Part shown: piece by piece, positions 25,911 to 28,722 of the stretch
Position numbering within the stretch: position 1 is the first letter of the stretch
How the letters are laid out: each line of letters starts with the position of its first letter
Source: Escherichia phage vB_EcoM_G4507
Strand: one strand, 5' to 3'
Sequence record: NC_054919.1
DNA: 64,000 nt
Notes under the pieces: generated by a model
The model's input: only the letters and a program-made list of their open reading frames with translations
What the model was told of the DNA's origin: nothing
The model's database searches: none
Translations under genes and position numbers: made by a program

Positions 25911-26099
25911 TTAGTCCTTAGTTAAATTTTCTAAATATGTTTCTAAATCATTTTCAGCTTTATCGATAGATTTTACTAATTCGTAATATGTTTCGGCATC
26001 TCCATATTCAGAAGATATTTCAAAAGACAAATCCTTTTCTAAACTAATAATTTCACCAACTAAAAATAATATTTCGTTCTTTTGTTCGCGAGTAATCAT
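25911..26099 (-). CDS. Small acidic protein (tk.1 position, paralog family)
   Basis: ORF track. Confidence 0.45.
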   Translation of the reverse strand: MITREQKNEILFLVGEIISLEKDLSFEISSEYGDAETYYELVKSIDKAENDLETYLENLTKD

Positions 26100-26281
26100 A
26101 AGGAATTTATATAATCAATGAGTTCTTGTTCTTTATTATCAAATTCTTTGGAAAGTTCTTCATATTCATTTGCGCTAAAAGGACCGCATTCATTACAAAC
26201 TTTTTCCAATTCACTATTTTTATCCATAATTTCGTGGATAAGAGAAAAGAGTTTGTCTTTTTGTTCTTTGCTTAGGCTCAT
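26096..26281 (-). CDS. Small acidic protein (tk.2 position, paralog family)
   Basis: ORF track. Confidence 0.45.
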   Translation of the reverse strand: MSLSKEQKDKLFSLIHEIMDKNSELEKVCNECGPFSANEYEELSKEFDNKEQELIDYINSL

Positions 26282-26447
26282 ATATTAATTTCCAGAAGTT
26301 TTAAAATAATTCGCTTTTGCTTAAATATTTCCACAGTTAAATGATCAGTATCTTTTTGACCAATTCCAATGGCAAAACCTTTATTAACAGCGAGTTCAAT
26401 TAAATTATCAAGTTCACGTAACACTTCATATTGTAACTCAGAACTAT

Positions 26448-26675
26448 TCATTTCGGTTTACCTTCTTTAACGAAATCTGGATAAGGATAAAATCCCGAAT
26501 AAAATCCTTCACCTTTATGATTGATGCATCCTTTATTAGAACAATAGCACCAATAATCGAAATCACAAGCCATTTCATCGTTACATAAAGCAAAAACAAC
26601 CGGCCACTTACACTTTTCACAGTGGGCATTTTTAAGAATACTAGTTTGGCTCATAACCATGTAACCTTTAAGCAA
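26448..26675 (-). CDS. Small Cys-rich (probable Zn-binding) protein
   Basis: CEKCK...C..C...CYC..GC pattern. Confidence 0.45.
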   Translation of the reverse strand: MLKGYMVMSQTSILKNAHCEKCKWPVVFALCNDEMACDFDYWCYCSNKGCINHKGEGFYSGFYPYPDFVKEGKPK

Positions 26676-26863
26676 TATTCTTCTACATGTTGTTTACGAC
26701 CTTTCTTATCAATAAAGGTATATTCAACGAATGTTCCAATGTAGTCTTTATCTACATCATGTGGACTATTAATTGGGCATTTAGTACGGCAAATGCGTTC
26801 CCATTGACGAATAATTACTGCTTTGTTTTTAGGATCAAACGGATGTGGGTAATGTACTTTCAT
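26651..26863 (-). CDS. Small hypothetical protein
   Basis: ORF track. Confidence 0.45.
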   Translation of the reverse strand: MKVHYPHPFDPKNKAVIIRQWERICRTKCPINSPHDVDKDYIGTFVEYTFIDKKGRKQHVEEYCLKVTWL

Positions 26864-27314
26864 AATCCACCACTATTAAATCAATATCAGGAGTAAACAT
26901 GTCGATTAATTTAGAAACCTTATCCCAATCGCCGCCAGCAATACCACAACCTATACGTGGAATGTAAATTACTGGTTTAAACAAAAGGGTTTCTGCCTGT
27001 AGATTTAATTCTATCATGCAGTTTACTAAAGCACCATAATCAAGATTAGGACCTGGTTCGTATTGCGTATACAAGTTATAACATATGCCAAACCCATTAG
27101 GTTTATGTTTAAAAACAATAGACATATCGCCTAATTTATCACGAGAACCGTACTCAGTAGTGGTTTTATCTATTTCTAAAATTTTGGGATAGGCTCTTGC
27201 TAATTGACCAGCTACACCACTGCCCATTGTATGAAAACAGTTACACCCGTGCGCAATAATATTACCTTCAAGAAAGAGGGCGACAATATCGCCCTTGATA
27301 TATTTTACAATCAT
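26835..27314 (-). CDS. Macro-domain-like protein (possible ADP-ribose binding/processing)
   Basis: GDIV..., HGCNC..MGSGVA and IGCGIAGG motifs resemble macro-domain Gly-rich loops. Confidence 0.4.
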   Translation of the reverse strand: MIVKYIKGDIVALFLEGNIIAHGCNCFHTMGSGVAGQLARAYPKILEIDKTTTEYGSRDKLGDMSIVFKHKPNGFGICYNLYTQYEPGPNLDYGALVNCMIELNLQAETLLFKPVIYIPRIGCGIAGGDWDKVSKLIDMFTPDIDLIVVDYESTLPTSV

Positions 27315-27658
27315 CTAGTACTCAATCCTCGATTATAAGAATCTACTAAACGGTCAACCATTGAATGACAAGCGGCTTTATCTTTTTCCTCCGCAACTGA
27401 ACATTCTAGGGTATTCCACTTTTTAGCATATCGTTTTAATAATGTATCGTTTTTGTATCTGCTTGATTTATCTCTTTCTCCGTCTTTATATGCATATATT
27501 AATTTCTGCGCAAATTCAGCTTGGCATGCTTTATTTTTCCCGCAATAATCTGCCGCAGTGCGGTTCACATACTCCCTAATTTCAGTATATGATGTATCTG
27601 CTGACGCATAAGCAGAAAATGAAATTAATCCTATACATAAAACCAAAATTTTAGTCAT
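27311..27658 (-). CDS. Secreted small protein, 115 aa (possibly Vs homolog by size and position)
   Basis: Signal peptide MTKILVLCIGLISFSAYASA. Confidence 0.5.
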   Translation of the reverse strand: MTKILVLCIGLISFSAYASADTSYTEIREYVNRTAADYCGKNKACQAEFAQKLIYAYKDGERDKSSRYKNDTLLKRYAKKWNTLECSVAEEKDKAACHSMVDRLVDSYNRGLSTR

Positions 27659-28196
27659 TTACTATTTCCAAAAGTTTATTATTTTTAAGGTAATTAGCCT
27701 TTTCTAGGACTTCAGAAGCATATTTAGAACCTGCTTTAACATTCCATCCCGAATTATAAGAGGATATTGCTTTTCTTATATCGCCCTTATGTATATTTAA
27801 CCAATAAGAAAGTTCAATGTACGCCCAGGAAGCTGAATTGGATCGTTTATTCAACATTCTTTTTATTTCAGCATCGGTCATATTATAACCAAGTTCCTTA
27901 ACTCTCGCTCGCATAGTAGGCAAATAATTTTGGAACATTCCGTAAGCATGATGTTTTGGTTTAGATTTTAAATTAACTCCGCCAGAGCTTTCTTGCCATA
28001 AAATAGCAGCCATTATATGACCTAATCCGCTCTTGTGGATATTTTTGTGTGTTTTATATTTTCCATCCTTAGAAAATTGTTCCCCGAATTGATACGCGTA
28101 ACGCATGTTATCGAGTTGGACATTACTGAAAGTATGCTCGGAGCTATGTGCCATCATTGAAATGGCCAATAGACCAGCGAGTAGTGCTTTTCTCAT
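27651..28196 (-). CDS. Secreted lytic-transglycosylase-like protein
   Basis: Signal peptide; ILWQESSGG motif resembling the SLT catalytic ES motif. Confidence 0.55.
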   Translation of the reverse strand: MRKALLAGLLAISMMAHSSEHTFSNVQLDNMRYAYQFGEQFSKDGKYKTHKNIHKSGLGHIMAAILWQESSGGVNLKSKPKHHAYGMFQNYLPTMRARVKELGYNMTDAEIKRMLNKRSNSASWAYIELSYWLNIHKGDIRKAISSYNSGWNVKAGSKYASEVLEKANYLKNNKLLEIVND

Positions 28197-28203
28197 GTTT
28201 ACC

Positions 28204-28665
28204 TCATTGAGTTTTAATTACTGCTTTAGAAGCCTTTCCTGGTAAACGACGACTGTTGATAATTGCCATCCTACATTGAAGTGACGGGTCTTTGAACTTC
28301 TCATTAGGTTTACAAACTGTAAATCCAAGCCAAAGATTTCCATCTGTAATTTCTAAACGTCCAGGACGATATTCAACTCCATCAATAAAATCCTCATCAA
28401 TGTCAGGACGCGGAGGCATACTCAGGAATTCATTAACTTCTAAAACATGGTCTTTTATTTTATGGAATAATTCAAAAACATATGTCTCATCAATCTCCCG
28501 TTGAATTGCACGATCAAGAAGATGTTGAGAATATTTTAGATGAAACGATGAGACCCCTGCTGCTTTTGATGCCTCACGAATCTCATTGTTAATTTGACGA
28601 AACTCCGACTCAAAGTGACGACGAAGCTTATTTCGACGGATAAAAACTTCTGTATTGATAGTCAT
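28204..28665 (-). CDS. regB: RegB site-specific endoribonuclease
   Basis: 153 aa; same length and position as T4 RegB; early promoter upstream. Confidence 0.75.
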   Translation of the reverse strand: MTINTEVFIRRNKLRRHFESEFRQINNEIREASKAAGVSSFHLKYSQHLLDRAIQREIDETYVFELFHKIKDHVLEVNEFLSMPPRPDIDEDFIDGVEYRPGRLEITDGNLWLGFTVCKPNEKFKDPSLQCRMAIINSRRLPGKASKAVIKTQ

Positions 28666-28692
28666 GTTATTCTCCTCTTAACTGATAGAAAA

Positions 28693-28722
28693 ATTATACC
28701 ACAGTCAAGAGGAAAAGTAAAC
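28693..28722 (-). promoter_or_regulatory. T4-type early promoter upstream of regB
   Basis: GTTTAC, 18 nt, TATAAT. Confidence 0.55.

Follow-up and report, generated by a model that had tools for sequence, protein, structure and literature searches.

A divergent allele of the T4 macrodomain gene tk.4/adfM in the regB–tk interval of a T4-like Escherichia phage

The window analysed here, a 64,000-nt stretch of DNA from Escherichia phage vB_EcoM_G4507 (NC_054919.1), carries between vs and tk.3 a gene whose product is, judging by its sequence and its structure model, a macrodomain of the TARG1/DarG/Poa1p-like branch that stands alone as a single domain. The gene was identified as the orthologue of T4 tk.4, now also named adfM; both the orthology and the macro fold are secure. 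With a probability that we put at roughly 60%, the protein would remove ADP-ribose from DarT2-modified phage DNA and so permit escape from the DarTG2 defence. Part of this picture is already known: the macro nature of the gene has been in the literature and databases for about 20 years, and the anti-defence role was reported in 2025. Going beyond the literature that we examined are the replacement of the allele and the presence, throughout the family, of a glutamine in place of the catalytic lysine.

Region 26000–28700 of the window matched Escherichia phage ECP52 at 100% identity and several hundred T4-like phages at 94–99%, and the source is a T4-like phage (Tequatrovirus). The genes of the regB–vs–tk cluster all lie on the minus strand in the order regB, vs.1, vs, macrodomain ORF, tk.3, two small ORFs, tk.2, tk.1 and tk, with reading frames that abut or overlap. 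The features in and around the macrodomain gene were:

27311–27658, minus strand: upstream neighbour vs, valyl-tRNA synthetase modifier, 115 aa (PHROG 1256, E = 1.4e-39)
27311–27314, minus strand: ATGA in which the stop codon of vs overlaps the start codon of the macrodomain ORF (from ORF coordinates and sequence)
26835–27314, minus strand: macrodomain ORF, 159 aa, divergent allele of T4 tk.4/adfM
26835–26863, minus strand: 29-nt out-of-frame overlap between the 3' end of the macrodomain ORF and the start of tk.3 (DUF7202)
26651–26863, minus strand: downstream neighbour tk.3, 70 aa, DUF7202 (Pfam PF23832, 132 bits), corresponding to T4 tk.3
26448–26654, minus strand: small Cys-rich ORF, 68 aa (Pfam PF23895 'Phage zinc binding domain', 101.7 bits)
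26278–26451, minus strand: small ORF, 57 aa (phrog_3452, no assigned function)

The macrodomain ORF starts with an ATG at 27314–27312, has an N-terminus that reads MIVKYIKGDIVALFLEGNIIAHGCNCFHTMGSGVAGQLA, and stops with a TGA at 26837–26835. Its ATGA arrangement with vs, a gene annotated in both the ECP52 and the T4 records, is identical in T4, and the overlap of start and stop codons suggests that translation of the macrodomain ORF may be coupled to that of vs. The T4 tk.4/tk.3 junction consists of an ATGA overlap only, whereas in the window a 13-nt deletion relative to T4 at this junction lengthens the macrodomain reading frame by a four-residue C-terminal tail. The gene is probably co-transcribed with the regB–vs.1–vs–tk.3 cluster, which lies on the same strand. 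A promoter scan was uninformative overall (16 sites against 18.4 expected); a sigma-70-like match upstream of regB (28721–28693, 10 of 12 positions, with TG) is compatible with co-transcription and proves nothing.

Three further observations concern the neighbouring genes. The two small ORFs lie in a segment of ~373 bp between tk.2 and tk.3 (26275–26647) that is absent from T4. Next to it, tk.1 (62 aa) and tk.2 (61 aa), at 25911–26281, both matched phrog_653 (E = 1.7e-22 and 2.3e-25), and, sharing this PHROG family, are tandem paralogues without an assigned function. Finally, Pfam placed an SLT lytic transglycosylase domain in vs.1 (27651–28196, 181 aa) at 25.1 bits, with a cut-off of 21.3; the ECP52 GenBank record labels this gene 'endoribonuclease', which looks like an error carried over from the adjoining regB.

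The slot between vs and tk.3 in T4 (NC_000866) is occupied by tk.4, encoding a protein of 155 aa (NP_049723) that is annotated in RefSeq as 'phosphatase; contains A1pp phosphatase motif'. The window protein matched T4 Tk.4 end to end over 155 aa without gaps (58% identity, E = 4e-70), and the gene is assigned as its orthologue because of this full-length match together with the shared tk.3–vs slot in the Tequatrovirus backbone. PHROG 335 was matched as well (E = 1.6e-71), and both proteins passed Pfam Macro. The initial annotation had described a macro-domain-like protein in the tk–regB interval; its domain call stands, but the named and long-annotated gene tk.4 had gone unrecognised. The macro nature of the gene is not new, since a 2006 paper already described the A1pp/macro homology of tk.4 orthologues (PMC1524935). 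In many GenBank records the gene product is labelled 'macro domain protein', 'Poa1p-like family protein' or 'phosphatase', and the 'phosphatase' label in T4 RefSeq and PHROG 335 comes from the domain name. A search of 50,697 phage records returned homologues in about 2,770; the phages carrying them infect Escherichia, Klebsiella, Salmonella, Pseudomonas, Vibrio, Acinetobacter and Aeromonas.

The macro-domain call for 26835–27314 was borne out by Pfam Macro (PF01661), matched at 33.1 bits (gathering cut-off 22, E = 6.2e-8) over profile positions 2–117 of 118. Sequence-only searches against solved macrodomains returned BT1257 (E = 1.9e-10), yeast Poa1p (E = 1.8e-9) and SCO6735 (E = 8.6e-8), with weaker matches to M. 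tuberculosis DarG (E = 1.4e-5) and human TARG1 (E about 0.009). We aligned 104 homologues, drawn from a search of 5.8 billion proteins, and supplied the alignment to AlphaFold2. The structure prediction agreed with the domain call: the model (mean pLDDT 94.1, pTM 0.89) has the three-layer alpha/beta/alpha macro fold, and disorder is confined to the last four residues (156–159, pLDDT < 50).

The motifs singled out in the initial annotation, KGDIVA…HGCNC…MGSGVAGQLA and IPRIGCGIAGGDW, are present, and the loops align with those of DarG. Four elements could be placed on the sequence:

27237–27251, minus strand: H22-G-C-N25-C26 motif with the conserved macrodomain asparagine N25 (family alignment)
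27198–27227, minus strand: glycine-rich loop 1, MGSGVAGQLA, residues 30–39, predicted ADP-ribose phosphate-binding loop
27063–27077, minus strand: N80-L-Y-T83-Q84 motif, with Q84 at the position of the catalytic lysine of DarG (K80) and TARG1 (K84)
26925–26963, minus strand: glycine-rich loop 2, IPRIGCGIAGGDW, residues 118–130, predicted diphosphate-binding loop

The conserved asparagine and the two glycine-rich ADP-ribose-binding loops of the Macro superfamily can thus all be recognised. Among 105 family members, H22, G23, N25 and C26 are invariant, and hhalign paired N25 with the VN-motif asparagine of the DarG profile. PhiKZ AdfM was mutated at N23 (N23A), and mutating a conserved asparagine of the catalytic site is reported to lower activity (PMC13309987); from our reading of the translated sequence, N23 would be the equivalent of N25 in the window protein. 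In loop 1, G33 and A35 are invariant in the family alignment and M30 and G31 nearly so, and the loop aligns with DarG VMGKG(V/I)A. K60 is nearly invariant as well. In loop 2, P119, G122, G124 and W130 are invariant and G127 and G128 invariant or nearly so; this loop aligns with DarG PPLG(A/V)GNGGL(P/D)W and, presumably, with a TARG1 segment that we take to read PRIGCGLDRLQW. All 28 positions with a conservation of 90% or more among the 104 homologues are kept in the window allele, whereas T4 Tk.4 departs at two and has a rare loop 2 variant, IGAGIGKGNW. The window allele, which also has the consensus loop 2, is thus closer to the family norm, and the sole allele with genetic data, that of T4, is the atypical one.

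N80, Y82 and Q84 are found in 105 of 105 family sequences, T4-type alleles included, and T83 in 102 of 105; hhalign paired NLYTQ with NFPTK of DarG, and the placement of Q84 rests on this profile alignment and on the secondary-structure register of the AlphaFold2 model. The signature of DarG and TARG1 is a TK motif, in which K80 (T. aquaticus DarG) or K84 (TARG1) is required for activity, and mutation of the catalytic lysine inactivates DarG (PMC8120803). Because an invariant glutamine replaces this lysine, the DarG/TARG1 lysine mechanism is ruled out for the Tk.4 family. The family is thus related to DarG, within the TARG1/Poa1p-like branch, but is not a DarG-type enzyme. If the family is catalytic, its chemistry must be independent of that lysine. 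SCO6735, which removes Glu-linked ADP-ribose although it has no catalytic pair (PMC8120803), is a precedent for such catalysis in the same branch.

The relation to DarG was also gauged by profile comparisons. When compared by hhalign with a profile of four DarG-type sequences, the Tk.4 family reached 98.6% probability. The sole PADLOC match of the window protein was DarG (27.7 bits, E = 4e-7), a model on which T4 Tk.4 scored 36 bits and PhiKZ gp104 133 bits. NCBIfam DarG (NF048014) was matched at 27.8 bits, below its cut-off of 250, and in its macro part only (2–142 of 338). The neighbours of the macrodomain ORF are vs and tk.3, with no adjacent darT.

To locate the divergence from T4, the window was aligned with T4 from tk to regB in 60-nt windows. 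One block stood out:

26860–27270, no strand assigned: block divergent from T4, covering the body of the macrodomain gene (60-nt windows)

DNA identity to T4 in the 60-nt windows was 42–78% within the block and 93–100% in the flanks on both sides, with one transition window of 83% at the 3' edge (26800–26859). The break points fall within the first ~10 codons and at the tk.3 junction. A gene whose protein is 58% identical to that of T4 amid flanking DNA of 93–100% identity is a swapped allele, an allelic replacement confined to the gene body. The window-type allele (at least 90% identity) was found in about 317 phage records. The T4-type allele was found in about 224 records at an identity of at least 90% and in another 159 at 80–90%, and intermediate alleles of 73–81% identity exist too. 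At least two common Tequatrovirus alleles of a counter-defence gene, 58% identical, are exchanged as a cassette, and such exchange would be expected of a gene on which arms-race selection acts.

A perfect GC-rich hairpin of 8 bp (AGGGCGAT ATT GTCGCCCT, 27277–27295) is present in codons 7–13 of the macrodomain ORF, just where the divergent block starts on its 5' side, and is identical in T4. It fits the pattern of a terminator. Terminator-like sites in the region were not above expectation (5 against 2.4 +/- 1.7), and the fold z-score of this hairpin was -1.13; of 200 shuffled sequences, 22 gave a fold that was as good or better. We therefore took the hairpin as due to chance or as a by-product of coding.

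The link to DarTG2 is genetic and comes from the T4 allele only. DarT2 ADP-ribosylates thymidine in single-stranded DNA, and the macrodomain of the DarG2 antitoxin removes the mark. T4 without adfA and adfN was still resistant to DarTG2, which predicted a further factor (PMC11825919). In transposon-insertion screens of T4 on defence-carrying hosts (HIDEN-SEQ), tk.4 alone reached significance when the host carried DarTG2, and its clean knockout made T4 sensitive to this system; the gene was renamed adfM, for anti-DarT factor Macrodomain (10.1101/2025.11.20.689424, Nov 2025 preprint). The authors of the preprint, whose evidence is genetic, wrote only that it 'seems likely' that the ADP-ribose is taken off the DNA enzymatically (10.1101/2025.11.20.689424). 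The idea, raised in the initial annotation, that a phage macro domain could reverse host ADP-ribosylation-based defences matches these T4 genetics (10.1101/2025.11.20.689424).

For the window protein, we infer the enzymatic mechanism, by orthology the same role for an allele of 58% identity, and the timing of expression. Upon infection, host DarT2 would ADP-ribosylate thymidines in single-stranded DNA and phage replication would be blocked. The macrodomain, made from the regB–vs–tk cluster, would bind the ADP-ribose via N25 and the two glycine-rich loops and hydrolyse it off the base, so that phage DNA replication could proceed and the DarTG2 defence be escaped. PhiKZ gp104 offers a precedent for such removal by a phage macrodomain, but this biochemically proven enzyme belongs to another subfamily (133 against 27.7 bits for the window protein on the DarG model). 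The invariant glutamine in place of the DarG lysine, and the 65 of 155 residues, loop 2 included, at which the allele departs from T4 Tk.4, also count against this reading.

Three other explanations were weighed against DNA de-ADP-ribosylation. [quoted passage not shown] We regard this as unlikely, although the alleles do differ in the substrate-side loop, BT1257, Poa1p and SCO6735 match the window ORF better by sequence than DarG does, and the solved relatives include TARG1, which is called O-acetyl-ADP-ribose deacetylase 1 in PDB entries. Alt and Mod enzymes modify arginine, and we know of no macrodomain that reverses the arginine–ADP-ribose linkage; both points count against Alt or Mod marks as the substrate. 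The activity of SCO6735 on Glu-linked ADP-ribose without the catalytic pair (PMC8120803) would suit a protein substrate, and CmdTAC acts against T-even phages (PMC11618068), but the sole phenotype reported for the T4 orthologue is sensitivity to DarTG2 (10.1101/2025.11.20.689424). A counter to DarT2 that works without catalysis, in which, for example, the protein would bind modified DNA or the toxin or serve as an ADP-ribose-binding reader, seems improbable to us. It would fit the absence of the DarG/TARG1 catalytic lysine from the whole family, and ICP1 AdfB, a different anti-DarT factor, has been proposed to contact DarT directly (PMC11481870). Nevertheless, the invariant pocket (H22, N25, G33, A35, N80, Y82, Q84, G122 and G124) is typical of an enzyme, SCO6735 is catalytic without the Lys/acid pair in the same branch (PMC8120803), and a single domain of 159 aa lacks any equivalent of the C-terminal domain with which DarG binds DarT.

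Only a slim chance is left for a small-molecule enzyme, that is, an ADP-ribose-1''-phosphate phosphatase (Poa1p-like) or an O-acetyl-ADP-ribose deacetylase that would clear NAD-derived metabolites or immune signals. The annotations naming such activities were carried over from domain names and not from assays, the NCBIfam O-acetyl-ADP-ribose deacetylase model was matched at 16.7 bits against a cut-off of 291, below the level for a MacroD/YmdB-type enzyme, and clearing metabolites would not account for why T4 tk.4 mutants are lost specifically when DarTG2 is present. The initial annotation had also suggested processing of NAD-derived signals, for which we found no support. Degradation of the Thoeris signal was considered and dropped, as the macrodomain in the literature examined is that of the host effector ThsA and not a phage enzyme.

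A bacterial member of the family in Pelagimonas phthalicica (P0095; SOAP01000002.1, positions 6001–6459 of L003) is 40% identical and contains the glutamine. In this single case, neither DarT nor another ADP-ribosyltransferase was present in the neighbourhood, where the neighbours are housekeeping-like (peptidase M23, Trp halogenase and peptidase U32). As weak, single-case evidence, a homologue without DarT indicates that members of the family need not be paired with a toxin; the rival explanations are not further separated by it.

Removal of ADP-ribose from DarT2-modified DNA thus remains the reading that we prefer. A broader and more tentative possibility, which we would still call doubtful, is that the Tk.4/AdfM family with its invariant NLYTQ forms a mechanistically distinct class of ADP-ribosyl hydrolases that do without the catalytic lysine and clear DarT-type DNA marks by a chemistry unlike that of DarG or TARG1. 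The deeply divergent alleles exchanged at this one locus of otherwise nearly identical T4-like genomes would then be variants of differing specificity, each favoured by other host defences of the DarT or another ADP-ribosyltransferase type. If so, the target range of the window allele would differ from that of T4 AdfM. That phage erasers of ADP-ribosylation neutralise toxin–antitoxin defences such as DarTG is a point already made for T4 tk.4/adfM; what the window adds is small, namely the pair of common alleles and the absence from the family of a lysine considered essential in DarG. T4-like phages are both model phages and therapy candidates.

Compared with known systems, the window protein differs from DarG (5M3I, 5M31 and 7OMU) in having Q84 where DarG has the lysine of FPTK, and it is a single domain of 159 aa, whereas DarG has a C-terminal DarT-binding domain and a darT partner. 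TARG1/OARD1 (2LGR and 4J5R) has a catalytic pair formed by K84 and an acidic residue at position 125, which we take to be Asp and to align with A126; on this assumption, the window protein has neither member of the pair (Q84 and A126). The acidic partner of TARG1 is given as Glu125, in a TK-G-G-D motif, in PMC8120803. Of the closer matches, BT1257 (2AFC/2FG1) is a solved macrodomain relative without an assigned function, yeast Poa1p (6LFQ) acts on ADP-ribose-1''-phosphate, and the structure of SCO6735 is 5E3B.

PhiKZ gp104, also named AdfM, removes DarT2-made ADP-ribose from an oligonucleotide in vitro (PMC13309987, Cell Reports 2026). Like the window protein, it is a stand-alone phage macrodomain that counters DarTG2 and has the conserved asparagine and two glycine-rich loops; unlike it, gp104 has an FPTK motif, is DarG-type and matches PDB 5M3I with E = 9e-25. 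BLASTP between the two proteins returned a match of 23 residues only. We therefore rejected equivalence with PhiKZ AdfM, gp104 being DarG-type and having almost no pairwise similarity to the window ORF. The name AdfM was given independently to two macrodomain subfamilies (PMC13309987; 10.1101/2025.11.20.689424), which may mislead annotation transfer.

The closest counterpart is T4 Tk.4/AdfM, with which the window protein shares the slot, the ATGA coupling to vs, a similar size (159 against 155 aa) and the signature AHGCNCFHTMG.GVAGQ / NLYTQ / PRIG.GI..G.W. The two differ at 65 of 155 residues, and in loop 2 the window protein has the family consensus GIAGGDW where T4 has the rare GIGKGNW.
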